Virus record (IMG/VR): IMGVR_UViG_3300025635_000031
Coordinates: 1 to 52,737 of that record
DNA from: a virus
Lineage: Duplodnaviria; Caudoviricetes
Reading direction: 5' to 3' (one strand)
Length of the DNA stretch: 52,737 bases
This document shows positions 6,342 through 45,627 of this stretch, piece after piece. The notes below the pieces were generated by a model that worked only from the letters and a program-made list of their open reading frames with translations, had not been told where the DNA came from and did not search any database. Both the position numbers and the translations under genes were made by a program. Every line of letters starts with the position of its first letter. The first letter of the stretch is position 1.

Positions 6342-8635
6342 CTATGCCAACACCGGGCCTTGTTCCACAAAACCTTCGCCTTCTTGGCGCGGAAGAGCCG
6401 TCAATTGCTGATACGGGCGATGTGCAAGTAGAGATCGAAGAAGGCAAGCCCGGTTATGAAACTGACGATAGCGGCAATATCTTACGCATTGAACATCCTG
6501 ATGGCTCTGTCAGTATTTCTCTTGATGGTAAGCCTATAACAGAGAAGTCAGAAGCAGAGCGCGCCAGAACATGGTTTGCGAACCTTGTCGAAGATATCGA
6601 TGAAGGCGAACTGCAGCGTGTCGCTGACGAACTGATGAAAGGCATTCAGGACGATATCGACAGCCGCAAGGAATGGATCGAAGACCGTGCGCAGGGCATT
6701 AAGCTGCTTGGTCTTAAGATTGAAATCCCCGGCCTTGCAGGCGCGTCTGACGGCGCTCCTGTCGAAGGCATGTCCAAGGTTCGCCATCCGCTTTTGCTGG
6801 AGGCCTGCCTGCGCTTTCAGGCCAATGCACGTTCAGAGCTGTTGCCCACTGATGGCCCGGTCAAGATCCGCAACGATGCTGTTGGCACCACGGTAGAGCA
6901 TGACTTCACAGCCACAGCGTTGGAGAAGGATCTAAACCATTACCTGACCAGCGTAGCCACAGAGTATTACCCAGACACTGACCGCATGCTGTTGATGCTG
7001 GGTTTTGGCGGCACAGCGTTTAAGAAGGTTTACTTCTGCCCGCTACGTAATCGCCCTGTTAGCGAAAGCGTTGATGCTGATGACTTGATCGTCAATAACG
7101 CAGCTACTGATCTTTCGACTGCAAAGCGAATCACGCATCGCGTTTACATGCGTCCATCGACGGTAAAACGTCTGCAGATCTTGGGCGTGTATCGTGATGT
7201 TGATTTGGGTGTGCCTAAGACGCCTGATTTGGATTCAGTGCAACGCGCACAGAATGATCAGCAAGGCATCGCGCCAGAGACATACAACCCTGAAGACCGC
7301 GACCGTGAAATCTATGAATGCTATTGCGAATTGGATATCGCAGGGTTTGAACACAAATACAAAGGCAAAGAATCGGGACTAGAGATCCCGTACCGCGTCA
7401 CCATCGACGTATCGACAAAAGAAATTCTGTCGATTGTGCGCAATTACGACGAAGATACGGCAGAGTTGCCCGAAGCGCGGCAAAACTTTGTCAAATATTC
7501 GTTTGTTCCCGGCATGGGCTTTTACGACATTGGCTTGTTGCATATACTTGGCAACACAACCAACGCGGTGACAGCTGCATGGCGCGAAATGCTAGACGCA
7601 GGGATGTACGCAAACTTCCCCGGCTTCCTAATGGCAGAAACAGGCGCGCGCCAAAACACAAACATCTTCCGAATTCCACCGGGTGGTGGGCAAGTGGTGA
7701 AGACAGGCGGCATGCCGATCAATCAGGCGGTTATGGCTCTGCCATACAAGGACCCGTCTTCAGCCCTGATGACACTTGTTGAAAACATGGCACAGACGGG
7801 TATGCGGGTAGGCGGCACCAGCGAAATGCAGGTTGGTGAAGGCCGCGCAGACGCGCCAGTGGGGACCACACTGGCCATGATTGATCAGGCCACCAAGGTC
7901 CTGAATAGCGTCCACAAGCGCATGCATTCGGCACAGGCTGATGAATTCAAGCTTCTAGTACGTACCTTCCGGGAAAACCCGGAGAGCTTCTGGAACCGCC
8001 TGAAGCGGCCTACAACCGAATGGAACGAACAGACATTCCTTGGCGCGCTAAACGACTGTGAATTGGTCCCACAGGCCGACCCCAATACTGCTAGCCAGAC
8101 CCAGCGCATGATGAAGATCATGGGCTTGAAGCAGCTTCAGCAAGCTAACCCATCGATGTACGATCCAATCGCCATCGATACGGCTGCTTTGAAGGCTATG
8201 GGCTGGAGCAATCCAGAACAGTTCTTGGCACCGAAGGATGCACAGGCTGCACCGCCGCCAGAACTGCAACAGATCCAAGCCAAGATCCAGACGGATCAAC
8301 AGAAGGCACAGGCCGCTCTTATGTCTGCCCAGATCAAGGGTCAGGAAGTGCAGCAACGCGGCCAGATAGACATGATGAAGGCGCAGGCAGACGCTATGCG
8401 CGCACAGGCCGACATTCACTTTGCGCAGCAAGAGATCCACGAAAAGAAAAAAGATCGCTTGTCGCGTGAACGTGTGCAGATGATTGATCTTGCGCAGAAC
8501 CTTGCTGTGCATCCAGAAAGTGTGGGGGTAGTAGAGCCTCTCTTAGTTCCGGCCATGGAGGACATGGAACGTGAACAGAGAGAACAACAAATGCAGCAGG
8601 GTGGTATTATGCCTCCCGGTATGGGAGGTCAGTAA
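6338..8635 (+). CDS. portal protein (P22-like)
   Basis: 765 aa after terL; HPLLLEA, GTAFKKVYF, GFYDIGL and PVGTTLA motifs; Gln-rich coiled-coil tail. Confidence 0.85.
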   Translation: MTMPTPGLVPQNLRLLGAEEPSIADTGDVQVEIEEGKPGYETDDSGNILRIEHPDGSVSISLDGKPITEKSEAERARTWFANLVEDIDEGELQRVADELMKGIQDDIDSRKEWIEDRAQGIKLLGLKIEIPGLAGASDGAPVEGMSKVRHPLLLEACLRFQANARSELLPTDGPVKIRNDAVGTTVEHDFTATALEKDLNHYLTSVATEYYPDTDRMLLMLGFGGTAFKKVYFCPLRNRPVSESVDADDLIVNNAATDLSTAKRITHRVYMRPSTVKRLQILGVYRDVDLGVPKTPDLDSVQRAQNDQQGIAPETYNPEDRDREIYECYCELDIAGFEHKYKGKESGLEIPYRVTIDVSTKEILSIVRNYDEDTAELPEARQNFVKYSFVPGMGFYDIGLLHILGNTTNAVTAAWREMLDAGMYANFPGFLMAETGARQNTNIFRIPPGGGQVVKTGGMPINQAVMALPYKDPSSALMTLVENMAQTGMRVGGTSEMQVGEGRADAPVGTTLAMIDQATKVLNSVHKRMHSAQADEFKLLVRTFRENPESFWNRLKRPTTEWNEQTFLGALNDCELVPQADPNTASQTQRMMKIMGLKQLQQANPSMYDPIAIDTAALKAMGWSNPEQFLAPKDAQAAPPPELQQIQAKIQTDQQKAQAALMSAQIKGQEVQQRGQIDMMKAQADAMRAQADIHFAQQEIHEKKKDRLSRERVQMIDLAQNLAVHPESVGVVEPLLVPAMEDMEREQREQQMQQGGIMPPGMGGQ

Positions 8636-10014
8636 TGGCTAGCGCAAAAGGATTTGGAGTTAAAGGGGCTGCAGCTGGTGCAGAGCGTGGTGCATCAAAA
8701 AGCATTCTAAATGAAGAGCTTCAAAGCACATTAGATTTGCTTAAGTCTACTCTGGCAAAAGATGCAGAGCGAATTGCAGCTGGTCAAAAGCCGTTTTTCA
8801 AAAGCCCAGAAGAAGCCGCCGCATATTGGGATAAAGCTTATAAAGAAATTTCAACTGGGGTTACTAAAGGTATTTACCCAATTGGCCCCAACGCGCCACG
8901 CATTACATACAAAAAAGATGGCCAACTTTTTACGCTTAATCGTGACGTAAAGCCGCCTGAAGGTGCAGAGCGCGTTAGCCTTACGAATGCTGATATTCTT
9001 AAGATGATGCCGCCCCGTCCGCAAGTTACACCAAAGCCTGCCGGGGAACCGAACGCTTATAACAACCCACCGCCGCCTGAATACACATCCCGTGTAGCAT
9101 CATCGCCATCTACACAGGAAGCTGTGCAAATTGCAAAAGAAACGACAGCTGCTCCTAGCGCTGAAAGATTATCGCCACGATTAACACCAACATCACCTTG
9201 GGAGAAACCCGGCTTTACACCGCGTGTCAGCCCAACCACGCCAGAAGCAATTACACCACGGGTTCGTGATCTGGTAGATCCAGCATTAGTTCTTGGCGCG
9301 GGGGGTGCTGGTGCTTATGCTCTTGACCCAAATGCAGCCAAAACAATGGCGCAAAATATTCTTCAAACGCAATATCAAACACGCGCTGGAGATAGCAGCC
9401 CCAATCACGACATGATGCCTTATATGGGATCTGGCGTATCTGAACAGCCGGATGATTTTCGTGATAGCGGCATTCCGTTTAAGCAGCCAGTTGGCGTATC
9501 GTATGACTACAGCGATTTTGCGCCAAATGGCGGCATGAATGACGGGTCAATGACACCGCCAACGCCGGATCAATCTGGCCGTGAACTTGGGCCTTTTCCA
9601 GAGCGTCAGATGGGTCAGGAGCAACGTTTCCGCCCAGCATCATATGAAGGGCAGGCCCAGCGCTTTCCGCCAATGGGTGCCGTTTCTACAGCGCGCCAAG
9701 TTATTCAGCGCGCACAGAATAGCCCTACAGCACAAGCGCAACAGGCTGCAGCTGTTATGCAGCAAAGCCCAAATGAACTGACAGTGCAAAGAAGCGCTGA
9801 TCAGGGTCCTAATGCTTTGACCCGGTTTATTCGTGGTGATTTCCGCGAAGGTGCCGATCAGCGCGTTATGGAGGCTATGCGCCGCCAGCGTGAAGAAAGC
9901 GGTGTAGATAGTTCTACTATGGCGCGTGGTGGTGCTGCACCGAAAAAGTCAAACAAGGACGATGTGCTGCATAAAGCGCTTGAAATCATTCATCACATGC
10001 TTACACGGCGCTAA
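8635..10014 (+). CDS. low-complexity putative internal virion protein with C-terminal MARGG...VLHKAL tag
   Basis: 459 aa, Pro/Gln-rich, coupled to portal, one hydrophobic segment. Confidence 0.6.
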   Translation: MASAKGFGVKGAAAGAERGASKSILNEELQSTLDLLKSTLAKDAERIAAGQKPFFKSPEEAAAYWDKAYKEISTGVTKGIYPIGPNAPRITYKKDGQLFTLNRDVKPPEGAERVSLTNADILKMMPPRPQVTPKPAGEPNAYNNPPPPEYTSRVASSPSTQEAVQIAKETTAAPSAERLSPRLTPTSPWEKPGFTPRVSPTTPEAITPRVRDLVDPALVLGAGGAGAYALDPNAAKTMAQNILQTQYQTRAGDSSPNHDMMPYMGSGVSEQPDDFRDSGIPFKQPVGVSYDYSDFAPNGGMNDGSMTPPTPDQSGRELGPFPERQMGQEQRFRPASYEGQAQRFPPMGAVSTARQVIQRAQNSPTAQAQQAAAVMQQSPNELTVQRSADQGPNALTRFIRGDFREGADQRVMEAMRRQREESGVDSSTMARGGAAPKKSNKDDVLHKALEIIHHMLTRR

Positions 10015-10017
10015 ACA

Positions 10018-13000
10018 ATGGCTGATGATAAAGACAAATCCGTCTGGCAACATGCCCAAGATGCCTTAAATTGGATTGGCAACACAAAAGACCGGATGCG
10101 TCAGCAATCATTAGACTATCTAGTTGATCAAGGCATGGATGTTAATGATGCCTTGCGTGCGGCCAATAGTGTAGGCCGCAAAGTAGACCGGACTAATCTG
10201 ATTTCACAGGTTGTGGCTGGCGGATTATCACGGCCAGTAGCAGCGGCACAAATGGTTGGCATGGGCCAAGACATTGGCGAAAGCCTTATGGGCGCTGGTG
10301 AAGAGCTTGGTTCAGCTGTTCAAGGGCGCGCCAAGGGCGGACGTTTGCTGCAAGACCAATACCCAACGCATTACATGCCGCATGTAGGAAGACAAGTTAT
10401 GCAAGATGGTGGCGATCCAAAGGATGTAGTAAACAAAGCTCTTGCTTTAACGTCTGGCGCGCAGCCATCAGCGCAAACTGTTGCTAATCTTGTTAAGCGC
10501 GGCCAGCCAATTGCACCACCAACTGCAGATCCTACAGATGAAGAGCTTGCAGCCGCCCGTGCTGATACGCGCGTAGGCAATCAAATTGTTGCGCAGCGAT
10601 TGAATAAGATCGTTCCTGAAAGCAAACGTGTTTACAAAGGGCAGTATACGCCCGGCGCACCGGGTGGCGGTCGCTGGTCAGACCTTGGAGACGAAGTTCT
10701 TAGCCGTCCGGGTGCTGGATTTAACGTTAAAGACAAAGAATTACAGCAACTTTGGGATGAAGCTGTTAATGAAAGTTCTGCCGCAGCGAAGAAAGCGGCT
10801 AAAGATTTTAACGTTCGCCCTACATTTCATGCAAAAGATTGGGATCAGGCTATGCGCCTGCCCTTAAAAGATCATCTCTGGTACGAATTGTCGGGCGAAA
10901 AAATGGCTGAAAACCTTCCAGACCTGTCTGGACAGGAATTCATGCGCATGATGGATTTGGTTGGTGCCACTTCTGCCCGTGCAGCACCCGATGAAAACCT
11001 TGAACGTGCGCTTGCAGCTATGTCGCAGCACCTTCGTGGCGCGCCAATTGACGTTGATTTGACCCAACCTGACACTGTTAACCGCGCTATTTCGCGAATG
11101 GGGCAGGAATCATCTGCTCTTCCGGGTAATAAAACAGGACAATTTTCTGATACGCTTACATTAGCAGGCGGCGTGCCTACACGTTTTCCAATTTCGGTGA
11201 ATGATGTGTGGGTTGGTAAGATGTTTGGCGTTCCTGACAAGGTAATGTCATCTAATCAGTCGCTTCATGAACCAATGGCGATCTATTTCAACAAATTGCG
11301 TGACATGTACAACGAAAGACATGGTCACGAAGTGCCATTTGACTATCAATCATGGAATTTTCAGGCTCCTGCGTGGGTTCATTTGCGAAATAAAGAAGCA
11401 AATGCAGAATCTGGTGATGCATATCATCAGGTTTGGGGCAAAATTATTGGAAAATTGCAAAATGCTGGTGTTGAAGGCATCGATGGCGATAAAATTACGC
11501 GCCAAGCAATGATGGACCCACGTTTTGCTGATGCTTTGCGTCGTACAACGCAAGAATTCCGCGAAGCACCAAAGGCTACGGTCGAACTTGGCACCAAATT
11601 GACGCCAACAGGCCTTCGTGCGCATGAATTGTACAAGCAGGCCATTGCTGCAGGCGATGATAAGACACAAAAAGACTATGAAAAGGCTCTTGTCACGGCC
11701 ATGTACGCCTCTGCACGCGGTAAGGGGCATGGCTGGGAGCTTTTGAAGAAAGCTATCACTGGCGATCTGTCGAATAAATCAGATATCACCCGCATTGTGC
11801 AGCCTACAGCCGATGATCCATTTACCCATGGCGGAACATATGAAAATGAAATGTCGCCAAATATTAGAATTCCGCTTAAAGGAATGACGCCGCAGCAAAT
11901 TCAATATTTCAATGCTATTGCAGGTAAACATCTGAACCAAGGCGCAATGGCTGCGTCACAGGTTTTGCCTGTAGACCCAAATCAGGTTCCAAGGGATGGA
12001 TATGTGCGCGGGCACAGTGTTTTTGTGCCGACAACTGACGGTATGAAAAAGGAAGATATCCGCAAATTTGCAAGCGAAATCAATCGCTTGGGGCATAGCA
12101 TGAGTTACACAAGCTATCCTAACGGGTATGTTTTCGATATTAACCCGCAATTTACCGATGATGGCGTTAAGGGGATCGACCACAATACGCTTGCAGATGC
12201 CTATGACGTTACGCTAGCACCTAAGTATGGCAAGCCTGCATTATTCGCCCATGACTACAAATCGGAATATCAAACACAGCCAGAGTACGGGAAGCTTCGT
12301 ACAAAGCTTATGAAGGAGATGAACGATGACTTCATCAAAGAAGCCGTCCAAGCAGGCACACCAAAAGATTACGCACGGCGTATCGGTCAAGGGTCATCGT
12401 TACCCTCTGACGTCTCTAAAGGAACTGCAAAAGCTTGGGATCGGTACAGAGGGCGACTTTATCATCTCCTCTTTGCCGAAAAAGAATTCCAAGACCTAGC
12501 AAAGCGCGTTGAAGATGCGCATGGCGCGTTCATTCCTAAAGCAGAAGCACGTCTTGCAAAGCTTGCTAAATCACAAGCGCCCCAGACGCCTCCTGCCGCG
12601 CCAGAAGAGCCTACGCCAACAATGGCAGAAGGTGGCACTGTTCATGAACCGCACCAGCGCGCGGAAGAGCAGGGATATTCTATTAAGGGCTATCATGTGA
12701 CGCGCGGCCCACGCGCCAAAGGTATTAGCAGCTCTGGGCGGTTTTCTTTAGAACATGCAGAAAACCCCGGTGAAGAAGCGATATTTTTTTGGGATAACCC
12801 AGAAGCAGCAAATGACTGGGCGCATGCTTTAACGCAAACAACAACATTTAACCCCGACAAAATGACAGAACGGGATAAGGACAGGTTTGAACGTCACCAA
12901 ACTTCAATTCTTCCAGTTAGAATTAATCCCGGTAATCATGCAGAAGTTGATTGGCCATCCTTTGCTGGAACACATAGTTACAACACCGATGCAATGTCTA

Positions 13001-13200
13001 AATTAATTAGCCACGCCCAAGATCAAAACATAGACACGCTGCGAATTAAAAATATGCAGGAAGATGAATATAAAGAAAACCCACCTGACCAAATTGCGGT
13101 TTTAAATCCACGGTTGATCCGTTCGGAATACGCGAAGTTTGATCCTGCCCGCCAGCATGAAAATGACATTGGCGCGGCCACTGGTGGAGAGGTCAACTAA
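10018..13200 (+). CDS. polyvalent protein: central HhH-glycosylase-like domain plus C-terminal ADP-ribosyltransferase (ART-PolyVal-like) domain
   Basis: WYE..ATS..N..K.GQF..VNDVW..QAPAW pattern; C-terminal GYHVT..IFFWDNP..A..QIAVLNPRLIRSEYAKFDP pattern. Confidence 0.6.
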   Translation: MADDKDKSVWQHAQDALNWIGNTKDRMRQQSLDYLVDQGMDVNDALRAANSVGRKVDRTNLISQVVAGGLSRPVAAAQMVGMGQDIGESLMGAGEELGSAVQGRAKGGRLLQDQYPTHYMPHVGRQVMQDGGDPKDVVNKALALTSGAQPSAQTVANLVKRGQPIAPPTADPTDEELAAARADTRVGNQIVAQRLNKIVPESKRVYKGQYTPGAPGGGRWSDLGDEVLSRPGAGFNVKDKELQQLWDEAVNESSAAAKKAAKDFNVRPTFHAKDWDQAMRLPLKDHLWYELSGEKMAENLPDLSGQEFMRMMDLVGATSARAAPDENLERALAAMSQHLRGAPIDVDLTQPDTVNRAISRMGQESSALPGNKTGQFSDTLTLAGGVPTRFPISVNDVWVGKMFGVPDKVMSSNQSLHEPMAIYFNKLRDMYNERHGHEVPFDYQSWNFQAPAWVHLRNKEANAESGDAYHQVWGKIIGKLQNAGVEGIDGDKITRQAMMDPRFADALRRTTQEFREAPKATVELGTKLTPTGLRAHELYKQAIAAGDDKTQKDYEKALVTAMYASARGKGHGWELLKKAITGDLSNKSDITRIVQPTADDPFTHGGTYENEMSPNIRIPLKGMTPQQIQYFNAIAGKHLNQGAMAASQVLPVDPNQVPRDGYVRGHSVFVPTTDGMKKEDIRKFASEINRLGHSMSYTSYPNGYVFDINPQFTDDGVKGIDHNTLADAYDVTLAPKYGKPALFAHDYKSEYQTQPEYGKLRTKLMKEMNDDFIKEAVQAGTPKDYARRIGQGSSLPSDVSKGTAKAWDRYRGRLYHLLFAEKEFQDLAKRVEDAHGAFIPKAEARLAKLAKSQAPQTPPAAPEEPTPTMAEGGTVHEPHQRAEEQGYSIKGYHVTRGPRAKGISSSGRFSLEHAENPGEEAIFFWDNPEAANDWAHALTQTTTFNPDKMTERDKDRFERHQTSILPVRINPGNHAEVDWPSFAGTHSYNTDAMSKLISHAQDQNIDTLRIKNMQEDEYKENPPDQIAVLNPRLIRSEYAKFDPARQHENDIGAATGGEVN

Positions 13201-13238: not shown

Positions 13239-13267
13239 TATTGCATAGCTGTGAAACGTGGTATTTT
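13239..13267 (+). promoter_or_regulatory. candidate late promoter (TATTGCATAGCT box, TGGTATTTT extended -10-like)
   Basis: intergenic; the 12-mer is repeated exactly at 17473..17484. Confidence 0.4.
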
Positions 13268-13317: not shown

Positions 13318-15222
13318 ATGTACGGTGAAGCTAAAAAGGCCCGCACGGCCATGAAGAACAAGGCCAAGCGCCTTGCTTCAGAGAAATCAGAGCGCGTTGA
13401 TTCGTCCACTTGGACGCAGGCAGAACCGCTTGATGCTGATGTAAAGACTGGCATGCGCCCTGTGTCGCGTCGTGCTTATCGCAGTGGCGGCAAGGTTCAG
13501 GGTGAAGTCACAAAGAAGCATGCTGGCAAGAAGGCCCGCGCTTCTGGTGGCGCGGCTAATGCCAAGCAGATCGCTCTGGCCAAGGTCAACCGTAACGTTA
13601 AAGATGCCAACGAAGAGCGCGAAGGCAAGAAGCACATTGGTGGCCTGAAGACAGGTGGCCGCGCCAAAAAGAAGATTGGCGGCGCTGCAGCCGATATCCT
13701 TGGTGTTCTTAGCCCTGTCGTTATGGCCGCAAACATGATGCGCGGCGACAAGGACGAAAAGAAACACGGTGGGCGCACCAAGCGTGAATATGGCGGTCGT
13801 GGTGTTGGGGAACGCACCCAACACGAATTGAAGCGCCGTGACGCTGTTCAGGCTGCGACGGACTACGGTGAAGATCCGCGCGTGACCGAAAGCGTTTTGC
13901 GCGACAAGACCCGTGCCTTTGAAAAGTCAGCCGAACAGACAGCTTATAAGAAGGGTGGCCGTACCAAAAAGATGGACGGTGGCCCTATGGGTGATCCGCG
14001 TCTTAATATTGCTAAGTCGCAGGCTTTTGATCTTACAAACACACGCGGCGCACCGGGTACGGTTGTTGCCAAGCGCGGTGGCAAGATCTCCCACATGGAA
14101 TGGGAGCATTCCAAGAAAGATCTTTCTGAAGATAAGAAGCTTGCCAAAAAGCACGGCATGTCTTTGGAAAAGTGGGAAAAGTCGAAGCTTGATGAAAAGC
14201 ACGACAAACAACAGTCAACCAAGGGCCTTAAGCGCGGCGGTCGTGCTAAAGGCGGCGCTACTAAATACCTTGGTGCTGGTTATGGTTCAAAAGACGAAAA
14301 AGAAGCTGAAAAAGAATACGGCAAAAGAGAACCTGCTCTTGATCGCGCTTTGAACCAGATGGAAGGCACTTTTAGCCCGTGGGCTATGCGCAAGTCGCGT
14401 GCAGAAATTGCAGAGCGCCGCGCCGGGGCGAAGGATGGCCCTGAAAAGCGTGCAGCTGCAAAAAAATACAGCGATGATGCAAGCCTGAAGGATGCTGGTT
14501 ATAAGCATGGTGGACGCCCTAAGCGCGCCACTGGCGGCATGATCAATGAAACCAAGAAGCTTGCCGCTCTTAAGGCTGATCCGCACAACCAAACTAAGAT
14601 CAAGCCTGCTATGCCAGCACCAAAAGAGCCTGCCGCTGAAAAATGCGGCGGTGGCCGTATGGCACGCAAGGCTGGTGGTCGCGCCAAGGGCAAGACCAAC
14701 ATCAACATTGTGATTGCAACTGGCAAAGGCCAGCCGGGTCAGGATGGTATGCCTCCGGGCATGCCTCCAATGCCTCCGGGCGGCCCTATGGGTGGCCCGC
14801 CGCGTCCTCCGGGTGGTGTGCCTGTTCCAATGCCAGCTGGCGGTCCTCCTGCGGCCCCGCAGGCGATGCCTATCCCAATGCCGATGCCTGCTCCCCAACA
14901 GCCCCCTATGGCGCGTAAGTCTGGCGGACGCATTACAAAGGTAGCCAAGTCCTATAAGGACATGGAAGCTGGTGCAGGATCTGGTGAAGGCCGTTTGCAG
15001 AAAACGGACATCGCCAAGCGTGATCGCAAAGACGAATACCAGAAGGGTGAAAAAGCTTTCACTGGCCTTGGTTATCCTAACAAGGTTCCGGGTGCCACAG
15101 GTGGGCGCACGGCACGCAAGGCTGGCGGCAAGGCATACCATTCTTACAAGGACATGGATGCGGGCGCTGGTTCGGGCGAAGGTCGTTTGGAAAAGACAGA
15201 AATCGCCAAGCGCAAAAAATAA
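13318..15222 (+). CDS. highly basic xxxGG-repeat protein (putative internal head protein or peptide polyprotein)
   Basis: 634 aa, Lys/Arg/Gly-rich, 19 xxxGG motifs, Pro-rich tract, duplicated C-terminal 24-aa unit; AGGAG RBS. Confidence 0.75.
14950..15213 (+). repeat. 72-nt imperfect direct repeat (14950..15021 and 15142..15213) encoding SYKDM(E/D)[10 protein letters not shown](Q/E)KT(D/E)IAKR
   Basis: visible in both protein and DNA. Confidence 0.9.
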
Positions 15223-15313: not shown

Positions 15314-15523
15314 GTGTTATCTTCACAAGCGTTCTTCCGCAATGAACTGATTAAGCTTCTTGCCGAAGACATAGAGCGAATTAAAGAAAATTTAACAAAT
15401 TGGGGTGCGACCCCTGACTTTCCTACTTACACACACCAAGTAGGGAAGATTGATGGCTTGCGCATGGCTTTAGAGCTGATTGAACAAGCTGAAAGTGCAA
15501 TGAATGGAGTGGAGAGGGGATAA
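15314..15523 (+). CDS. hypothetical head-module protein
   Basis: 69 aa with Y...VG.IDGL motif, upstream of the GroES-like gene. Confidence 0.65.
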   Translation: MLSSQAFFRNELIKLLAEDIERIKENLTNWGATPDFPTYTHQVGKIDGLRMALELIEQAESAMNGVERG

Positions 15524-15915
15524 TGCCATTTATGAAGATGGATCACGAAAATGATCCGCGCGCCAAGATCGTCAACGAAGTTGGTGATTTGTCGCAATTA
15601 GAATTGTTTAACAATCAGATTTTGGTTGGTGTCTACATCAGGCCGCAAAAAACCAAATCTGGTATTTATTTGGCTGATCGTACTGTCGATGAAGATCGTC
15701 ATCAGTCGAAGGTTGGTCTTCTCCTTAAAACAGGTCCAAAGGCGTTTGAACCAAACAATGATGGATGGTTTGAAGGCGAAACCTTCAATGAAGGTGATTG
15801 GCTTGTTTATCGCCCTGCAGACGGGTGGAGCATCACCGTTAATAATGTCCTTTGCCGCATCCTAATGGATACGCAGGTTAAGGGACGCATCCAAGATCCA
15901 GATCAGGTTTGGTAA
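15523..15915 (+). CDS. groES: phage co-chaperonin, GroES/Cpn10-like
   Basis: mobile-loop KTKSGIYL, then VGLLLKTGP, GDWLVY and RILMD. Confidence 0.8.
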   Translation: MPFMKMDHENDPRAKIVNEVGDLSQLELFNNQILVGVYIRPQKTKSGIYLADRTVDEDRHQSKVGLLLKTGPKAFEPNNDGWFEGETFNEGDWLVYRPADGWSITVNNVLCRILMDTQVKGRIQDPDQVW

Positions 15916-37757: not shown

Positions 37758-38723
37758 ATGCCTCTTAAAAAGGGTTCTTCACAGAAGACCGTATCGACAA
37801 ACATCCGCGAACTTGTTCATTCGGGTAAGCCGCAAAAACAAGCGGTTGCTATTGCTCTTGATGTGGCGCGTCGGTCCAATAAAGCCGTAGGTGGGGAACT
37901 AACGCCTGTTGTCAATCCAACCGTTTACAATGCACAGTTGCTTTCAACCCTTTCTGGCAAGCCTGTAGCGGCAGGCGATGGGAAGTCAGAAAAAGCACCT
38001 GATGGTGAAGCACAGGCAGGCACAACCGCATCACCAATCATGCAAAAAATGGCTGAAAATTTGGGCGGCGGTGGTGGTGGTGGGGACGGGGGCGGCGGCG
38101 GTTCCAATTTTGGAGGGTCCGATGCCAGTGGCACAGCCGGTGGCGTCAATGGCTCTGATTATGGCGGCGGTTCTGGTAATAACCCCGGCAGCGAAGGCGG
38201 CTCTCCTGCAACCCTTGCAGAAGGCGGCGCAGCGCCCTTCTTTGGCGGTGGAACGGGCACTACTACCAAGGTCCACGTAGGGCCCATCCACAGCCCCGTA
38301 GCAGGCCGTACAGACCATCTGCCTATGCATGTTCCTTCAGGGTCCTATGTGATCCCTGCCGATATCATTTCGGCCATGGGGGAAGGCAATACGATGGCTG
38401 GGTTTAAGGTGGCCAATACAATCTTTAGCCGTATCCCCGGAATGACTGGCGCGCCCGGTATGCAGGCTATCCCGACGAAGGGTAGCACACCCGGTATGGA
38501 TGCCGAATTAGGCATCCCCGGCAAAGCAAGGGGTGGCACTATTGAAGATGCTGTACCCATCGTTGCGGCTGGTGGGGAGTATGTAATTTCGCCGGGCGAT
38601 GTTCGTCGTATTGGCGAAGGAGACTTAGACAGGGGGCATCAGGAGCTTGATCTATTTGTTAAGGCGATGCGCGCCAAGACAATCAAGACCCTGCAAAAGC
38701 TCCCCGGTCCAAAGCGTGATTAA
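37758..38723 (+). CDS. protein with three xxxGG motifs and two 'P...G(S/E)YVI' domains
   Basis: MPLKKG.S..T.S.NI.E N-terminus; GRTDHLP..VPSGSYVIPAD and VPIVAAGGEYVISP. Confidence 0.7.
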   Translation: MPLKKGSSQKTVSTNIRELVHSGKPQKQAVAIALDVARRSNKAVGGELTPVVNPTVYNAQLLSTLSGKPVAAGDGKSEKAPDGEAQAGTTASPIMQKMAENLGGGGGGGDGGGGGSNFGGSDASGTAGGVNGSDYGGGSGNNPGSEGGSPATLAEGGAAPFFGGGTGTTTKVHVGPIHSPVAGRTDHLPMHVPSGSYVIPADIISAMGEGNTMAGFKVANTIFSRIPGMTGAPGMQAIPTKGSTPGMDAELGIPGKARGGTIEDAVPIVAAGGEYVISPGDVRRIGEGDLDRGHQELDLFVKAMRAKTIKTLQKLPGPKRD

Positions 38724-38737: not shown

Positions 38738-39220
38738 ATGACAGAAGATCTGCAAATCCGGATTGGAACGCCGGATGATCTGGATGAAGTGATGGACGCA
38801 GCGCAGTCAGCGATTGCCGAAATTGGCCTTGTACATCCAGACCCACGAAAAGTTCTTGAAGACGTTTGGCCAGCCTTAAATCAACAGGCTGGTATTGTTG
38901 GTATTATTCAAAAGCCCGGCGGTCCTGTAGAGGGCGGTGTCCTTTTAAGAATGGGTAAAATGTGGTATTCAAATCAAGATGTACTTGAAGAACGCTGCGT
39001 TTTTATCAAGCCAGAGTTCAGGAACGCTAAAGGCGGTCGTGCGCGCAAGCTTGTTGAATTCTCCAAAAGCGTTGCTGAATCGCTGGGTGTGCCTTTGCTG
39101 ATTGGTGTCATGTCAAGCATTAGAACCGAAGCTAAGGTTCGCCTTTACGAAAGGCAGTTTGGCAAGCCGCAGGGGGCGGTATTTCTCTACAATCTGCATC
39201 CACAAGTGCAGGAAGGATAA
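38738..39220 (+). CDS. GNAT-fold protein preceding the ejection proteins
   Basis: IR..T.DD, FIKPEFR...GRARKL motif A-like, LYERQ. Confidence 0.55.
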   Translation: MTEDLQIRIGTPDDLDEVMDAAQSAIAEIGLVHPDPRKVLEDVWPALNQQAGIVGIIQKPGGPVEGGVLLRMGKMWYSNQDVLEERCVFIKPEFRNAKGGRARKLVEFSKSVAESLGVPLLIGVMSSIRTEAKVRLYERQFGKPQGAVFLYNLHPQVQEG

Positions 39221-39226: not shown

Positions 39227-42200
39227 ATGTGCGGCGGATCATCTACAACCACCCAATCGACCACGATCCCACCAGAGGTTCTGGCGCGATATAATGCGGT
39301 CAACGCGCGGGCAGAAGATGTCGCCAAACAGCCATTCCAGCGATACACGGGCCAATTTGTAGCCCCCATCAACCAACAACAGATGGCAGGCATTAGCGGC
39401 ATTAATCAAGCTGCCAATATGGCTCAACCATATTTCAATCAGGCATCTGGCGCTCTAACAAATGCTTATGGGCAGGCAAATCCATACTATGGGCAGTCTA
39501 TTAACACAGTTGCGGGTGGTGCAAGCCAAGCAAACCAACTTTATGGAACTGCTCTTGGCGGCATTTCTAATGCTGTTAACATTGGTTCGCAGTATGGGAC
39601 GGACGCAACACGATTTATCAATCAAGCCGGGACCTCTGCCCAGCCATATATGAACCAAGCAGGGGCATATGTTGGTAGCGGCCTTGCGGCTGCAGATCCT
39701 TTACTTGCGCAATCGCAAAAGTTTCTTGAAGGTTCTACGCAAGCAATTAACCCGCAAGAGTTTAGTCAGGCCCAGATTAACAAGTACATGTCTCCCTACA
39801 TGAAGAATGTAGTGGAGGCGCAGCAGGCCCTTCAGCAGCAAGAATCGGCAGCGCAGCGTTCGGCTCTTAATTCGCAGGCTATTGGCGCTGGCGCGTTTGG
39901 TGGTGATCGTGCCGGAATTTCACAGGCAAACCTTGCGCGCCAACAGACGCTGGCCAACCAAGCAACTTTAGGCAATTTGTTGCAGCAGGGATATGGTCAG
40001 GCCGCTGGCATGTTCCAGCAGCAGCAGGGCGTTAACCTTGCTGCAGAGCAGGCTAATCGTCAGGCCCAGCAATTTGGCCAACAGGCCGCAGCCAATCTTG
40101 CGCAACAACGTTTTGGGCAAAACCTTGCCGCATCACAGCAATACGGAAATTTAGGTCAAGCTTTATTCGGCCAAAATTTGTCGCAAGGTCAGGCTCTATC
40201 TGCTCTTGGCCAACAACTTTATAGTCAGGGTCTGGGGGCTGCACAAGCACAAGCTGGAATTGCCCAAAATCAATTTGGCATGTCTGCGCAACAGGCCAAT
40301 TTAATGCAGCAGGCCGCGCAGGGTCTTTTTGGCATGGGGTCGCAATATGCTTCCGGCCTTGCTGGCCTTGGAACAGGAGCGCAGGCCGCAGCATTGCAGG
40401 GCGCGCAGGCACAGATTGGTGCTGGAACACTGCAGCAACAAACGCAGCAAGCGCAAGACACCGCTAAATACAACGAATTTTTGCAAGAGCGTGGTTATCC
40501 GTTCCAGATCGCGCAGTTCTTGGCAAACATTGCTATGGGTACTGGCGCGTTGTCTGGTTCAACTACAACGACAACGTCACCGAATAACTGGATGTCTGAC
40601 CGCCGCCTTAAGAAAGATATTAAAGAAATTGGTGAAACCCACGATGGTCTTCCGATCTATAGCTTTAAGTACAAGGGCGGTGATGACCAGCAGCGTATTG
40701 GTGTTATGGCCGATGAAGCGCGGGAAAAGCATCCTGATGCTGTCCATCGTGTTGGCGGAATTGATTCGGTTGATTACGACAAGATTGTAAACCGCGCCAG
40801 TGAAGGTGGGGGTGTTCTCCCGCACCGTGCCCGTGAAGGTTTTGCTTTAGGAAGTTCAGTACCTTCTGGTAGCGCAAGCGTCAGCGATGATATTTTTAAA
40901 CAATACCTTAATTTTATTGGTTTAGCTGACACACCGCATGGGAACGTAGCTTCATATGCAAAATCTGCAAAAAATTTGCCGGGGCAAGCAGGTATTGTTC
41001 CGCAGCAAACTCCACCAATTATGCAGTTAAGAGCGCCAAGCTCTCCCCCACGCCAACAAGAAAGTGGACTATCGCAAGCAGCTTCTGCATACAAAACTGT
41101 AGAAGGTGGGCTTGATAAGCTGTTTGGTGAAAAGGGTCTTGCAACATCTAAGGGTATGCCAGCGCGCATATACAAAGGTCTTACAGGAAGTAACGACGAC
41201 AAGCAGGGTTCTAAATCGGGCCAAAATACTTCAACTTCGTCAGAGCCACCACAACAACAAAAACTAGAACAAACAAAAGCATCTTCTGTTTCTCCAGATG
41301 AAAAGTCTTTTTACGATAAATTTATTGATTGGTATCAAAACCGCGCTTATGGCGGCGGCGTTGCACCACAATTTATGGCAAGAGGCGGCGTATCTGCCTT
41401 GAATGAAGGTATTCTTCCTTATCAAACAGAAGATAAATATGGTCCAGAAGCTGTTAATGAAGCAGAAAGCGGACACAAGTTTGATACTCTTGATGAAGCT
41501 GGTGGAGGGAAAAGCGGTTCTGGATCTGGGTCAGGTTTGGCAAACGCCATAGGAATGGCAGGTACCGCAATAAAAGGTCTTACTGCTCTTGCATCTCTTC
41601 TTCCATCCGATGAACGTTTTAAAACGGGCATGAAACGGGTTGGTGAATTAGACAACGGCCAACCAGTCTATAAATATCGTATTGGTAATGGGCCAACCCA
41701 AATTGGACTATCTGCACAGAACGTATCTAAATATGGTGATCCATCGTCTGTTTATCGTGATGATGATGGTTTCCTTCATTTAGATTATGAACGCGCCACA
41801 CGGGAATATGGCGGTGGTATCCGCCCAGCATATCAAACGCGCGGTCGCGTTGATCCCGATATGCAAGACATCGATTACGCAATCAGAACAGCTGCAGCTG
41901 AAACAACTGGTGATCCAGATGAAACGCGCGGGATTGCGCATGTGATCCATAACCGTTTGCAATCTGGAAAGTATGGTGACAGTTATAAAAATGTTGTTTT
42001 AGCGCCAAATCAATTTGAACCTTGGCAAACAGAAAACAACAACCCGATGCGGATTAAACCTGATGATCCGCGTTATCAGCAAGCAAAAGCTGCGTTTGAA
42101 GATATTCAATCCGGCAATATGGACCCACGTTTTGAAAATGTTCAGAATTTTTGGGGTCCAATATCACAGTACGCTCTTAAGCGTCAGGCACCTGAATGGG

Positions 42201-43768
42201 GTCGTGTAGGCGGTCTAGATCTAGGTGGAACACGGTTCCATTCTCTTGACGAAGTTAAGGCATCGCATAGAGGAATTGAAGCACGCCCATTTGAAGGAGC
42301 GCCAGCAAATGTTCGCCGCTCTGTAGCTCCAGCTGAATCATATATTGATGAAAGCGGAAAGCGCGTAAATACAGTCAATGGAGAAGAAGAAAAAGGAACG
42401 CTTGCTGGCCTTCTTCCGACTAATTACCGCACTGGCGCGCCATTTAAGGGATGGTCAGACTATCTTACTGATCGCCAATTTGTTCGCCCATTGTTTGCTG
42501 GCCTTGCTGGCATGGCACAGTCCAAGAGCCGTTTTGCTGTTCCAGCAATTCTTGAAGGATTGGGGGCAGCTGCCGCAGCCGACATGATGGCTGAAAAAGG
42601 ACAACAAGAAATTGCTGAATCGCAATCGCGTGAACAATTGGGTCTAGCCCAATCGCGCAATATGTCTATTCAAGAAATTACACCCGGATATTTTATTGTT
42701 TATCTTGCTAAGGGTGGCACTAAAGATTTGGCCGATTGGATGGAGACGCAAGAGCCTCTTGTTGGGGGTGAATCTGGGGCTGAATTGGCGCGTAAAATTT
42801 ATGCCCGTAAAACGGGGCAGGCATCTGCAAAACCAGCTGCATATACTGGAACAGCTGATACAGGCGCAGGTGCAGCTACCGCTGGGCAGGCGGGTACTGA
42901 AGCTGGTTCTGCAGGGGCTGGAACAACAACAGTTGTTGGTGGTCAATCAGCACAAGGCCAGCCGGGACAAATAAAGCCTGCAAAAAGTGCAAATATACCG
43001 ATATCACCGTTTGTCACATACGATGATAGTTCTGTGCAACGCGCCAGAGAAGACTTTAAACAAACGCAGTCTCCCGGCGGCCAATCGTTTGCAGAGCAAG
43101 GAAGAGAAAACCGGAAAAAAATTAATAATGGTGCGCAACAATCCTACGGAATTGCACCAGTAATTAATGAAATGGCGCAAAACATCATGGATTCGCTTTC
43201 CCAGACTGGGATATCTTCAACCGGTCCGGGTTTTGGAAAAATTGCATCCGCATCTGCCGTACTTGGAACATGGCCAGCGCGCTTTGGCCTTCCAATTGAT
43301 TTTACAAAGCCAGCTGACATTAAGCAAAAAGCGCAAAAATATGCGGAATTTTTGGCAGCTGCAGCGGCGCAGGGTTATGGTCAAGATACCCTTGGTGCAA
43401 TGCAAAGAATGGCTTCTGTTATGCCAGAACCAGAACTTACAAAAGATACCCAAGCACAACTGACATCTGAACTTCTTGTGTTTAACAAAAAGGATCAGCA
43501 TAGGCAGCAGTTTGCACAAAAATATGATCGCGATTCAAACAGCAATCCTGCTAACGTCTATGCAGAGTTTGAACGCTTAAATAAACAGAAATATTTAGAT
43601 TCTGTTTCGTTGGTTAAAAAATTAATGCTTGAAGATCCAGTTTTGGCAAAAGGATTTTTGTCAAATCAGGTACCTCCAGAAGAGATGGAAAAGTTCTTCA
43701 AACAGTATGCGCAAAGCCGTAAACTAAAATACCATACGGGTATGTCTGACTTTTTTGTGGGGCAGTGA
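39227..43768 (+). CDS. DNA ejection/pilot protein with two peptidase S74-like domains and a SleB-like cell wall hydrolase
   Basis: Gln/Ala/Gly-rich N-terminal third; SDRRLK and SDERFK domains; RT..AE...AHVI.NR...V.APNQFEPW. Confidence 0.78.
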   Translation: MCGGSSTTTQSTTIPPEVLARYNAVNARAEDVAKQPFQRYTGQFVAPINQQQMAGISGINQAANMAQPYFNQASGALTNAYGQANPYYGQSINTVAGGASQANQLYGTALGGISNAVNIGSQYGTDATRFINQAGTSAQPYMNQAGAYVGSGLAAADPLLAQSQKFLEGSTQAINPQEFSQAQINKYMSPYMKNVVEAQQALQQQESAAQRSALNSQAIGAGAFGGDRAGISQANLARQQTLANQATLGNLLQQGYGQAAGMFQQQQGVNLAAEQANRQAQQFGQQAAANLAQQRFGQNLAASQQYGNLGQALFGQNLSQGQALSALGQQLYSQGLGAAQAQAGIAQNQFGMSAQQANLMQQAAQGLFGMGSQYASGLAGLGTGAQAAALQGAQAQIGAGTLQQQTQQAQDTAKYNEFLQERGYPFQIAQFLANIAMGTGALSGSTTTTTSPNNWMSDRRLKKDIKEIGETHDGLPIYSFKYKGGDDQQRIGVMADEAREKHPDAVHRVGGIDSVDYDKIVNRASEGGGVLPHRAREGFALGSSVPSGSASVSDDIFKQYLNFIGLADTPHGNVASYAKSAKNLPGQAGIVPQQTPPIMQLRAPSSPPRQQESGLSQAASAYKTVEGGLDKLFGEKGLATSKGMPARIYKGLTGSNDDKQGSKSGQNTSTSSEPPQQQKLEQTKASSVSPDEKSFYDKFIDWYQNRAYGGGVAPQFMARGGVSALNEGILPYQTEDKYGPEAVNEAESGHKFDTLDEAGGGKSGSGSGSGLANAIGMAGTAIKGLTALASLLPSDERFKTGMKRVGELDNGQPVYKYRIGNGPTQIGLSAQNVSKYGDPSSVYRDDDGFLHLDYERATREYGGGIRPAYQTRGRVDPDMQDIDYAIRTAAAETTGDPDETRGIAHVIHNRLQSGKYGDSYKNVVLAPNQFEPWQTENNNPMRIKPDDPRYQQAKAAFEDIQSGNMDPRFENVQNFWGPISQYALKRQAPEWGRVGGLDLGGTRFHSLDEVKASHRGIEARPFEGAPANVRRSVAPAESYIDESGKRVNTVNGEEEKGTLAGLLPTNYRTGAPFKGWSDYLTDRQFVRPLFAGLAGMAQSKSRFAVPAILEGLGAAAAADMMAEKGQQEIAESQSREQLGLAQSRNMSIQEITPGYFIVYLAKGGTKDLADWMETQEPLVGGESGAELARKIYARKTGQASAKPAAYTGTADTGAGAATAGQAGTEAGSAGAGTTTVVGGQSAQGQPGQIKPAKSANIPISPFVTYDDSSVQRAREDFKQTQSPGGQSFAEQGRENRKKINNGAQQSYGIAPVINEMAQNIMDSLSQTGISSTGPGFGKIASASAVLGTWPARFGLPIDFTKPADIKQKAQKYAEFLAAAAAQGYGQDTLGAMQRMASVMPEPELTKDTQAQLTSELLVFNKKDQHRQQFAQKYDRDSNSNPANVYAEFERLNKQKYLDSVSLVKKLMLEDPVLAKGFLSNQVPPEEMEKFFKQYAQSRKLKYHTGMSDFFVGQ

Positions 43769-45627
43769 TGGATTATTCACAACGAATGCAAACATTGGTT
43801 GGTGGTAATTCTTCGGAAACCACAAATCAAGAACAAAAGTTTTCTGAAAATCCATTTGCATCCCGAATGGATGCTTTGTTACGTGGTGAACAGCCAAAAC
43901 TTGGCGCACCACCGCCACAACCTTCTGGCGCGCCACAGCAAGCTGAAACAGAAACAGATCAACAACAGGCCCTTCCTACACTGACTGTTGGCCGTCAAGA
44001 ACCAAAGGAAATGCCGCTTAGCGAATGGGGTTCAGAGATTGTAAAAGATCTGCCCAAGAAAGCTTATGAAGCCGGAAAAACTTTTGTTGAACCGTTTATG
44101 AACCCTGCGGAAACGTGGGAGGGCATTAAAGGTCTTGGTAAAGGGGTTGTTTCAAAAGTAGCTGGTGCTGTTGGAATGCAACAATCACCAGAACAAAAAG
44201 CAGAGGATGAAGCAGTTGCAGATGCATTTTGGGAACTTCAAAAAGAACGTTATGGTTCATGGCCACGCATTCAAAGAACTGTTGCGGAAAATCCTTTTCT
44301 TGCTGCGGCTGATGTGTCTAGCGTTGCTTCACTGGGCGGCGCAGGTTTGGCAAGATTGCCGGGAATTCTTGGGAAGACTGGTGAAGCGGTACAAGCAGTA
44401 GGCCGCGCCACTGACCCAATTGGTCTTGCTTTAAAAGCGCCAACCTTAACCGCCCAAATAGTATCAAAGCCTGTTAATTTTGGTTTATGGCTTCAAAGTG
44501 GGAGGCCTATGAGTTCATTTGATACGGCAACGCAAGCTGGGTTGACAGGAAATAAAGCATTTGTCCGGCATATGTCTAATGGGCCATCTGTTGGGGGGGA
44601 ACTTGTTGAAGCCGTCGATACTGCGACAAATTCAGCTGCTAAAACAGCAAGTCAAAAATACATTGAAAATTATGAAAAATTAAACAAGGGTCAACCTCTT
44701 AAATATGATAAAATTGATACAGCGCTTAAGGAATCCCAAAACATTGCCTTTCCCAAAGGGGAAGCATTTGATCCATCTTCAAGCAAAATTCAAACATTTG
44801 CGCGCATCAATGCTCTTTTAGATAATTGGAAAAATAAGCCAAATGTATCCCATGATTTAGAGCGTTTTGACACGTTAAAAAAATCTTTACAGGATTTTAC
44901 GCAAGAAAATAATCTTTTGCCGGGAAGTAAAGAATTTAGAATTGTTGATAATTTGCGAAAAGCGGCTCTTGATACGCTAAAAGAGGCAGATCCTAATTAC
45001 GCTAAAATGACCGAAGAATGGCGGCAAGCACAAGATTTGGTTAAAAGTTTTAGGGCTGATTTAGCTAGCGGGAGAACATCAACTGCAAAATTAAGAAAGT
45101 TGCTATCTTCGCCTGAAAGCCCGTACAAAAAAACATTAATTGCTGAATTGGCTAAATATGATCCTGACATTCCGTACATGCTTGCTGGGCAAGAGTTAAA
45201 TGCTATTTATCCCCAAGGTTGGCGTGGGTGGTTAGGCAGTGTTTTGACTAGCGGTGGTTTAGCAGGTGTTGCAATGCATCCTGAATTAGCTGCTGGCGTT
45301 GTTTTAGGTTCGCCACGGATTGGTGGAAATATCGCTTATAGAACTGGCCAAGTAGGCTCTTTAGGGGAGCGCGTATATGGCGGTGTGCCGCAATTTACTA
45401 AAGGGCTTGGATATCAAGCAGGTGTATTGACGGGGATGGATGAAATACCACCAGAAGAGCGTGAACAGCGCGCCACTGGTGGTAAGGTGACTGGGTCTAT
45501 CGCGCAGCGCCTTGTGGCAGCTGCAGAGAAGGCCCATAAGTATCACCAGAAGACGACTGAAGAGATATTAGACGCGCCAGACGAAACGGTCGTTAAGGCG
45601 CTGGCTGTGGCTAAAAAGAACATCTAA
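43768..45627 (+). CDS. internal virion/ejection protein with C-terminal RATGG...VVKAL tag
   Basis: follows the pilot protein; Gly/Ala-rich hydrophobic segments, SPR motif. Confidence 0.65.
   Translation: MDYSQRMQTLVGGNSSETTNQEQKFSENPFASRMDALLRGEQPKLGAPPPQPSGAPQQAETETDQQQALPTLTVGRQEPKEMPLSEWGSEIVKDLPKKAYEAGKTFVEPFMNPAETWEGIKGLGKGVVSKVAGAVGMQQSPEQKAEDEAVADAFWELQKERYGSWPRIQRTVAENPFLAAADVSSVASLGGAGLARLPGILGKTGEAVQAVGRATDPIGLALKAPTLTAQIVSKPVNFGLWLQSGRPMSSFDTATQAGLTGNKAFVRHMSNGPSVGGELVEAVDTATNSAAKTASQKYIENYEKLNKGQPLKYDKIDTALKESQNIAFPKGEAFDPSSSKIQTFARINALLDNWKNKPNVSHDLERFDTLKKSLQDFTQENNLLPGSKEFRIVDNLRKAALDTLKEADPNYAKMTEEWRQAQDLVKSFRADLASGRTSTAKLRKLLSSPESPYKKTLIAELAKYDPDIPYMLAGQELNAIYPQGWRGWLGSVLTSGGLAGVAMHPELAAGVVLGSPRIGGNIAYRTGQVGSLGERVYGGVPQFTKGLGYQAGVLTGMDEIPPEEREQRATGGKVTGSIAQRLVAAAEKAHKYHQKTTEEILDAPDETVVKALAVAKKNI

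Follow-up and report, generated by a model that had tools for sequence, protein, structure and literature searches.

A Gly-Gly header motif at module borders of putative virion and ejected proteins in an uncultured podophage and its relatives

The IMG/VR record IMGVR_UViG_3300025635_000031, whose entire 52,737 nucleotides are here called the window, holds a podophage with an SU10-type portal at a completeness of 92%. A short pentapeptide ending in two glycines recurs in several of its proteins, most of them large and of no recognised family, which raises the question why the same few residues should return there and what, if anything, would read them. An earlier reading of the DNA sequence (the original prediction) had proposed that the pentapeptide marks domain boundaries in seven putative virion or ejected proteins and belongs to a system for tagging cargo or processing polyproteins. 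The present study revealed that the motif is nearly absent from the rest of the proteome outside two gene zones and that it is conserved where the surrounding sequence is not. As proposed, it stands at module boundaries in a defined set of proteins, encoded by the genes from portal to scaffold, by a small gene after the capsid gene and by the cluster behind the nozzle gene.

Occurrence and conservation of the motif

The motif follows the consensus [R/K/Y/F/L/M]-[K/A]-x-G-G-x-[V/I/A] and was counted in a strict form, [RKMYFL][AK].GG, and a looser form, [RKMYFL]..GG, the pattern being chosen after the data had been seen. All 15 copies predicted outside 13318-15222 translate to the pentapeptides reported, while within 13318-15222, where 19 copies had been claimed, there are 24 GG, 20 of them fitting the looser and 12 the strict form. 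The glycine codons are a mixture of GGT and GGC in seven combinations, which argues for selection at the level of the protein and not of a DNA word. A Shine-Dalgarno-like DNA signal (AAAGGAGG) behind K-G-G was ruled out by the same mixture.

When 52 open reading frames (ORFs) were compared with 2000 composition-keeping shuffles per protein, the strict motif was found in eight of them, the seven named proteins and, as a single copy, an 844-aa protein (34864). The 634-aa protein encoded at 13318-15222, which consists almost entirely of such units, is the densest carrier, with 24 GG against 12.06 in the shuffles and 12 strict motifs against 1.10 expected, neither value being reached in any shuffle (0/2000). 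Outside this protein the per-protein p ranges from 0.007 to 0.26; the 321-aa protein has 3 strict motifs against 0.38 (p 0.007), the 81-aa protein 2 against 0.27 (p 0.03), the 1060-aa protein 2 against 0.32 (p 0.04) and the 1513-aa protein 3 against 0.89 (p 0.06), and the 459-aa, 620-aa and 844-aa proteins carry one each, which is not significant. Taken by itself the window is weak evidence for six of the seven proteins, and it is conservation that carries the observation; the predicted enrichment is found in the 634-aa protein and in the zones of four genomes, with weak per-protein values for the other six in the window.

The 634-aa protein has at least 2747 relatives at E ≤ 0.001 among 8000 candidates scored, none of them informatively named. 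Strict motifs number 8-17 per protein (median 12) in 119 of its 119 best homologues, against a shuffled mean of 1.29, and the order of the sites along the alignment is kept. In 18 non-redundant homologues from other phages the consensus reads [R/K/L/Y/F/M]-K-x-G-G-[R/K]-[A/V/T/I]. Many of the sites in the 634-aa protein form doublets with a spacing of 5 or 8 residues, and the DUF6496 inserts present in the family are bracketed by the motif.

The 81-aa protein shares the sequence AGRKPRKSGG with the 634-aa family, and the seven carriers are thus not all unrelated, as had been assumed. In its own family the residues K34, G36, G37, R57, R60, G63 and G64 are invariant in 10 of 10 members (K-x-G-G and R-K-P-R-x-x-G-G), and conservation extends to both sides of the GG, as in AGRKPRKSGGGVxSSA. 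Some relatives of this protein grow to ~140-150 aa by four to six tandem His-rich K-K-H-G-G units (..HHAKHKKHGG..). Their variable number suggests rapid gain and loss of repeats and the units may perhaps bind metal.

The 634-aa protein holds 139 K+R and 73 D+E, a net charge of about +66, and most of its motifs are flanked by K or R. Its gene belongs to the head module and has a separate copy of the element TATTGCATAGCT in front of it, another being found upstream of the capsid operon. These features would suit a contact of the basic motif (K-K-G-G-K/R) with packaged DNA, the 634-aa and 81-aa proteins being charge-neutralising head proteins, an explanation compatible with the other readings considered below; as an analogy, the histone H4 tail has K-G-G-K and K-G-G-A-K-R, and histone tails and AT-hooks bind DNA. 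Against this, MAEGGT, MQDGGD, ASEGGG and REYGGG are acidic or neutral and could not bind DNA in that way, for which reason DNA contact cannot be the common function, and no DNA-binding family was matched in Pfam or NCBIfam. The explanation is considered improbable, although DNA contact may add to what the basic proteins do.

Of the 15 sites in the six other proteins, 13 are matched in one homologue or more by a GG at the same position or no more than ~10 residues away, and the conservation of the motif in relatives indicates that it is under selection. The two sites that fell away are LAEGG (38214), which lies inside a Gly-rich insert that the homologues do not have, and MARGG (41375), which is without counterpart in the homologue of relative G002. 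The GGs in the C-terminal part of the portal, set aside by the original prediction as chance occurrences, are indeed not conserved in seven homologues.

To count the motif across genomes two zones were set by position, one reaching from portal to GroES and the other from the 321-aa to the 620-aa family, and proteins of the 634-aa family were excluded. Over four genomes, those of the window and of three relatives (two of which are 100% complete), 62 strict motifs fall within 18,469 aa of zone sequence and 18 within the remaining 51,304 aa, a ratio of 9.6 (Fisher p 2e-21), to be read with the reservation that the strict pattern was chosen on data already seen and that zone proteins may differ in composition. 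A scoring matrix built solely from 634-family proteins of other phages was then applied outside that family with 200 shuffles. It found 7 sites in the complete relative G004 (0.68 in shuffles; 0/200 reach), 5 in G005 (0.99; 0/200), 3 in G002 (0.56; 2/200) and 3 in the window (0.79; 7/200); the matrix is biased towards basic forms of the motif, and MAEGG and similar sites escape it. Judging from gene position, the PHROG labels in the zones (virion structural protein, DNA ejection protein), a cell-wall hydrolase domain and the literature on polyvalent proteins, the proteins of the two zones are probably carried inside the capsid, as virion or ejected proteins.

Could low-complexity sequence rich in G, K, R and A yield such pentapeptides by composition alone? 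Taken singly, three of the seven proteins do not reach significance in the shuffles, two of the listed sites are not conserved and a run of glycines makes the GG count of the 321-aa protein too high. On the other hand, composition-keeping shuffles are exceeded in the 634-aa protein and in all of its 119 best homologues, positions are conserved in independent families and the zone-to-rest ratio was obtained in four genomes. Chance is refuted for the system as a whole, where it is exceedingly improbable, and holds for single sites such as LAEGG 38214 and MARGG 41375.

Module borders in the motif carriers

The 1060-aa protein consists of an N-terminal mini-cassette, a conserved core (residues ~150-860) and a C-terminal ART-like domain (~888-1052). 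It has no Pfam match of its own in the scan of window proteins, and its core is shared by 104 relatives, many of which add PF18760 ART-PolyVal, PF18823 InPase, PF18838 LPD23 or PF14284 PcfJ; by the domains of this family and by its location the protein belongs to the polyvalent kind. Directly after the core a GG is found in 60 of 63 homologues and the strict motif in 58 of 63, against 24% and 1.8% in control windows of the same proteins, so that the strict motif is ~30 times and plain GG 4 times more frequent at this junction. The modules behind the motif are unlike each other, comprising the ART-like domain, InPase, a 25-residue tail ('IPGVHIVTADAGEPIF') and a short 'IVDRALRVA' helix. Several headers can succeed one another after the core, and a conserved GG-EVN tail closes the ART-like module. 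On the N-terminal side of the core, GG flanks mini-cassettes of 15-35 residues at either end; one of these (..LLQDQYPTHYMPHVGRQVM..), found at residue 105 of the 1060-aa protein, recurs in two other proteins around residues 530 and 566. A C-terminal GG as a general rule was rejected, since it occurs in the last 12 residues of 13 of 104 polyvalent homologues against 10.7% of background windows and is not enriched.

An AlphaFold model of the 1060-aa protein (67 sequences, mean pLDDT 80) has low-confidence segments at residues 1-5, 58-150, 367-370, 861-879, 1037-1047 and 1049-1060. All four of its motif sites fall in segments with pLDDT below 50, and three other GGs sit in blocks of mean pLDDT 86-93; the claim that the motifs lie in linkers is borne out for this protein, to which the modelling of linkers was confined. 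The GGs within the folded core also differ in context from the junction motifs. When residues 888-1052 were compared with known structures, matches to the ART-like toxins MbcT (Z 8.1, rmsd 3.4, 134 aligned) and NatT (Z 8.2, rmsd 5.3, 142 aligned) made the predicted ART domain plausible, while the predicted glycosylase-like region received no support from the Pfam scan of window proteins or from structure comparison.

Polyvalent proteins of phages and conjugative elements were described by Iyer, Burroughs, Anand, de Souza and Aravind (2017, PMC5512222). The homologues of the portal-adjacent 1060-aa protein join a single conserved core to varying effector domains defined by these authors, among them ART-PolyVal, InPase and LPD23, and the idea of delivery with the DNA and later separation of the domains is common to both. 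That paper proposes a zincin-like MPTase, frequent though not universal, as the processing device, whereas no metallopeptidase or MPTase family was detected among the window proteins by Pfam, PHROG or NCBIfam. The word 'Glycine' occurs 0 times in its main text, which places the Gly-Gly header outside the description given there.

DUF6321 is encoded in the window as a free-standing 91-aa gene at 20026-20301 (+). In L028:6605-9391 it is an internal module, bracketed by GG motifs, of a 929-aa portal-adjacent protein, and in G004 (47432-50488) a near-C-terminal module covering residues 867-934 of a portal-adjacent protein of 1018 aa.

In the 459-aa protein, MARGG (9919-9933) heads a conserved C-terminal helix module (..HKALEIIHHML), and in relatives (L037/L038, L041 and L042) the same combination of [R]-x-GG and helix module forms the end of three different proteins, 325-659 aa long. 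RATGG in the 620-aa protein holds a corresponding place at the edge of its C-terminal cassette. Here R-A-x-GG-[KR]-[VI] is found in 31 of 31 database relatives with bodies of 590-898 aa, and four divergent relatives read RASGGRI, RKSGGRV, RAAGGKV and RASGGKI at the opening of the sole conserved stretch. Peptide patterns revealed no close relatives of the 620-aa protein in viral contigs, where they were reached by whole-record searches. In the 321-aa family KAVGG (37881-37895) and KARGG (38523-38537) are conserved.

The 1513-aa protein contains Peptidase_S74 (PF13884, E 2.2e-11, residues 457-506) and Hydrolase_2 according to Pfam. S74 domains, which are intramolecular chaperones, are usually situated at the ends of tail fibres; here two S74-type segments, 33% identical (E 1e-9), lie at 40595-40816 and 41603-41824 (+). 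Each ends in GGG-[V/I]-x-P, with ASEGG at 40796 and REYGG at 41801, and RAYGG is found at 41342. The claim that every S74 domain is followed at once by the motif is correct for these two and fails for the S74 domain of the tail fibre, which has no GG after it. When the 1537-aa G002 homologue is compared, three of the four listed sites have a GG there or close by. The N-terminal edges of the segments read S-D-R-R-L-K and S-D-E-R-F-K, with Ser and, five residues on, Lys, which we take to be the catalytic dyad. If active, the segments would let the protein cut itself into three pieces, the last with the cell-wall hydrolase domain.

A position at cassette edges would also suit a passive seam, i.e. 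a flexible joint inherited with each cassette that aids unfolding and threading through portal and tail and marks recombination joins, with no reader involved. The motif is always in linkers and at such edges, basic as well as acidic flanks are tolerated, the 81-aa family shows free variation in its number of repeat units and cargo proteins are thought to unfold partly on ejection, according to the account of crAss001 cargo (PMC10172136). However, nothing in a mere hinge would require a bulky or basic residue to be conserved at -3, K/A at -2 and V/I at +2, and these are kept where the flanks are unalignable or ~35-40% identical. The different context of GGs in the folded core and the gap between 30-fold enrichment of the strict motif and 4-fold enrichment of plain GG at the junction speak against it too, and a seam of this kind is regarded as unlikely.

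Genome context and relatives

The coordinates of the motif carriers and of the genes around them are collected in Table 1. Metagenome relatives are common; their capsid proteins are ~90% identical and their portals 63-72%, and the genes from portal to GroES barely align. The order of the head genes is shared with the cultured phages Pelagibacter HTVC023P, Roseobacter CRP-901/902 and Caulobacter RW, with a capsid identity of ~33-41%. No cultured phage with a protein of the 634-aa family was found, and the sole near relative in the phage collection is likewise uncultured.

Table 1. Positions of the motif carriers, neighbouring genes and expanded relatives of the 81-aa protein
Feature	Position	Strand	Remarks
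Large terminase	3992-5719	+	
HNH and endonuclease VII genes	5723-6118 and 20283-20729	+	Inserted in structural module: terminase/portal gap and after DUF6321 gene
SU10-type portal	6338-8635	+	
Three large genes	8635-10014, 10018-13200, 13318-15222	+	No recognised family
459-aa Pro-rich protein	8635-10014	+	Start overlaps portal stop
1060-aa polyvalent-type protein	10018-13200	+	One gene downstream of portal gene
Motifs of 1060-aa protein	10327-10341, 10399-10413, 12622-12636, 13174-13188		RAKGG, MQDGG, MAEGG, AATGG
634-aa protein	13318-15222	+	Strongly basic repeat protein
GroES-like gene	15523-15915	+	Cpn10 E 1.9e-4; PHROG co-chaperonin
296-aa protein	15926-16816	+	Coiled coil of scaffold type
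198-aa protein	16828-17424	+	193-aa protein next
303-aa capsid protein	18204-19115	+	
Small genes, two SU10-adaptor-like genes, tail fibres	Downstream of capsid gene	+	
81-aa basic protein	19718-19963	+	FKKGG and RKSGG; downstream of capsid gene
844-aa structural protein	34864	+	
Second block of unknowns	37758-38723, 39227-43768, 43765-45627	+	
321-aa protein	37758-38723	+	42-residue N-terminal module (phrog_2423), Gly-rich insert, conserved C-terminal domain
GNAT-type acetyltransferase gene	38738-39220	+	Within block of putative internal/ejection genes
1513-aa putative ejection protein	39227-43768	+	Q/A/G-rich N-terminal part, two S74-like segments, cell-wall hydrolase domain
620-aa protein	43765-45627	+	RATGG 45469-45483 is N-terminal edge of conserved 50-residue C-terminal cassette
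Tail fibre with S74 domain	Beyond second block of unknowns	+	
Expanded 81-aa relatives	L020:7108-7554, L021:5101-5559, L023:17015-17437		

The GroES-like gene is placed between the gene of the 634-aa protein and the scaffold-like gene, a position kept in the relatives, in Pelagibacter HTVC023P and in Caulobacter RW. The GroES mobile loop has the sequence K-x-x-G-G-I-V-L, and mimicry of this loop was set aside as an origin of the motif as the junction sites lack hydrophobic residues at +1 and +3. A search of the 296-aa protein against PDB sequences gave coiled-coil noise only.

Analysis of the intergenic DNA revealed two exact copies of TATTGCATAGCT, at 13239-13250 and 17473-17484 (+). The first is upstream of the gene of the 634-aa protein and the second upstream of the operon of the 193-aa and capsid proteins, just past a terminator-like GC hairpin and T run. 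It may be a late promoter element; with two mismatches allowed, 8 copies were found against 5.6 expected, which is not above chance.

The HNH and endonuclease VII genes look like homing endonucleases. The GNAT gene has the same position in G004 (Acetyltransf_7, E 1.9e-4). Among the tail-fibre genes a fused methyltransferase, glycosyltransferase and TPR protein is encoded at 31145-32776 (+). A GcrA-like regulator is encoded at 47272-47769 (-), and G004 38001-58000 (L062:3803-4063, 4090-4608) encodes GapR-like and DnaA-C-terminal-like proteins as well, genes which together point to an alphaproteobacterial host, putatively of the Caulobacter type.

Docking, cleavage and possible readers of the motif

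The original prediction had suggested that a phage protease or receptor recognises the motif and had named the products of 16828-17424 and 37758-38723 as candidate proteases. In agreement with it, no canonical prohead protease is recognisable in the window by Pfam, PHROG or NCBIfam. The same scans revealed no peptidase family except S74 in the window, a Gly-Gly-directed cysteine peptidase was not found among 53 window ORFs, and Pfam found no peptidase in 69 of the 75 ORFs of G004. The lambda-type tape-measure C-terminal region (TIGR01541 / PF09718) was not matched either, at E ≤ 0.1 for 13 proteins in NCBIfam and at E ≤ 0.01 for 33 proteins in Pfam.

Neither candidate was recognised as a protease. 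The 198-aa protein (16828-17424) has a small alpha/beta domain and no protease fold in an AlphaFold model of mean pLDDT 72.8. Its best Foldseek match in the PDB has E 0.35, with none at E ≤ 0.001, the wide VIA comparison gave a best Z of 3.9 with weak GNAT-like and winged-helix rows tied, and no PDB sequence scored below E 0.6 in a profile search. The 198-aa protein, which is kept in 24 distinct relatives, opens with an AT-hook-like R-K-R-G-R-P-P-K stretch before the confident domain. For the 321-aa protein (37758-38723) there is no Pfam match at E ≤ 10, phmmer against the PDB gave Gly-linker noise only and the Atlas viral hypotheticals only. The cluster crAss_CARG1 is the nearest named one in the Atlas to its C-terminal domain (score 0.85, 110 shared features), a lead only. 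The original prediction is in sum partly supported, as boundary marking and restriction to putative cargo hold and the part concerning a protease and cleavage has so far no support.

The reading preferred here, with a probability of about 0.4, is that the motif is a docking or tether tag that stays uncut. It would be read during procapsid assembly by one common partner, for which the inner face of the shell, the portal, the scaffold or the basic repeat protein itself are candidates, and a cassette bearing the header would be loaded. The multi-copy 634-aa protein could bind with high avidity or serve as a hub, and as the header would move with each cassette, modules might be exchanged between phages with packaging retained. 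The restriction of the motif to two gene zones and its place ahead of unlike modules speak for such a tag. An uncut tag is favoured because no protease is recognisable in the window or G004, because a 303-aa capsid protein occurs together with a separate coiled-coil protein of scaffold type, as in protease-less phages, because doublets 5 and 8 residues apart would, if all were cut, give products of 5 to 8 residues, and because conservation spans both sides of G-G. A short capsid protein with a separate scaffold is the layout of the protease-less phages P22 and T7. A precedent for docked, uncut and extended cargo is C1 of crAss001, bound to portal and tail barrel (Bayfield et al. 2023, PMC10172136); neither 'cleav' nor 'proteoly' occurs in the available text on it.

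Several points weigh against a docking tag. The partner remains a list of candidates and the place of the proteins inside the capsid is itself deduced; the pattern of the motif was settled once the data were known; and the flanks, which span very basic (RKSGGR) to acidic (MAEGGT, MQDGGD), are loose for a single binding pocket. Caulobacter phage RW retains GroES-like, scaffold-like, 198-like and 193-like head genes and has 4 scattered strict hits and no motif-rich protein (27 of 41 annotated features scanned), which also argues that these head proteins are not dedicated readers of the motif. Furthermore, disordered linkers at module borders are the typical position of polyprotein cleavage sites, and a host peptidase would escape a protease search of phage ORFs.

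The last two points lead to a cleavage code, in which a Gly-Gly-directed endopeptidase, either supplied by the host or encoded unrecognised by the phage, would split polyvalent and ejection proteins into their modules, either within the head or once injected, and the 634-aa protein would be chopped into basic peptides. It is consistent with the placing of the motif in disordered linkers precisely at module borders, with the occurrence of modules as free-standing genes (the 91-aa DUF6321 gene against the GG-bracketed internal module in L028), with the conserved GG-EVN tail at the end of the ART-like module and with the two segments of S74 self-cleaving type in the 1513-aa protein, by which polyprotein logic would already exist in the phage. 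Iyer et al. argue that polyvalent proteins must be processed (PMC5512222), which, like the following case, counts against an uncut tag. Host oligopeptidase A (OpdA) trims the ejection protein gp7 of P22, and mature gp7 starts K-G-G-K-G (PMC8402733); this is a single N-terminal cut before K-G-G and not after it, and no repeated junction motif.

On the opposite side, the sole peptidase found in the window or in the 69 G004 ORFs is S74, which cuts at its own N-terminal Ser, the candidate at 16828-17424 lacks a protease fold, cutting at the doublets would yield tiny products and, in the 321-aa family, KARGG is embedded in the conserved C-terminal domain, ahead of VPIVAAGGEY. Adenain, pS273R of African swine fever virus (ASFV) and double-glycine leader peptidases do cut after G-G, and the likeness extends to the position in linkers of virion precursors and, for the adenovirus core proteins, to a basic character like that of the 634-aa protein. 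However, neither the window nor the 69 G004 ORFs scanned (of 75) yielded a cognate peptidase of clan CE or C39, and the bulky residue is one place further from G-G in the phage motif than in adenain and ubiquitin-type sites, which counts against cleavage. The likeness to these Gly-Gly protease systems is one of motif only, and cleavage is viewed as a serious rival that is somewhat less probable than docking.

A docking tag may also be set beside known ways of loading heads. In phage T4, IPI-III and Alt share a capsid targeting sequence, a single N-terminal peptide of ~10 residues that is removed after Glu by the gp21 prohead protease. Common to both is a short shared peptide on head-packed proteins, including an ADP-ribosyltransferase, but here the motif is internal or C-terminal, G-G centred and present with up to 24 GG in one protein, and a prohead protease is not recognisable in the scans above. 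The cargo-loading peptides of encapsulins are short, Gly-containing and transferable and dock cargo inside an HK97-fold shell, usually as one terminal copy. They resemble the header as short portable Gly peptides and differ from it in consensus and copy position, and binding to the shell is shown for them while for the header it is a prediction. By analogy, the header system would work like T4 capsid targeting or an encapsulin loading peptide, yet it fails defining features of both. The crAss001 cargo proteins C1 and C2 (Bayfield et al. 2023, PMC10172136), to which the crAss_CARG1 lead points, show no sequence-family match in Pfam and belong to another lineage, the portal here being of SU10 type, and no motif is described in the available text on them.

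More generally, the motif might tentatively be regarded as a portable address code, by which cassettes with a header would be loaded into the capsid or else released by an unrecognised Gly-Gly-specific enzyme. Such a header is not described in the parts of the literature found on these systems. The rules by which head proteins are chosen and polyvalent carriers handled are known for very few phages (T4, P22, T7 and P1). If the address code is true, unrelated tailed phages would trade injected effectors as plug-in modules, and the 634-aa family, with its at least 2747 relatives, would be a multivalent hub or a processed core protein. The header would explain why mosaic portal-adjacent genes are found alongside a 90% identical capsid protein. 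Being conserved and confined to putative cargo, it could predict cargo in uncultured phages, allow reporter tests and perhaps serve to load foreign proteins.

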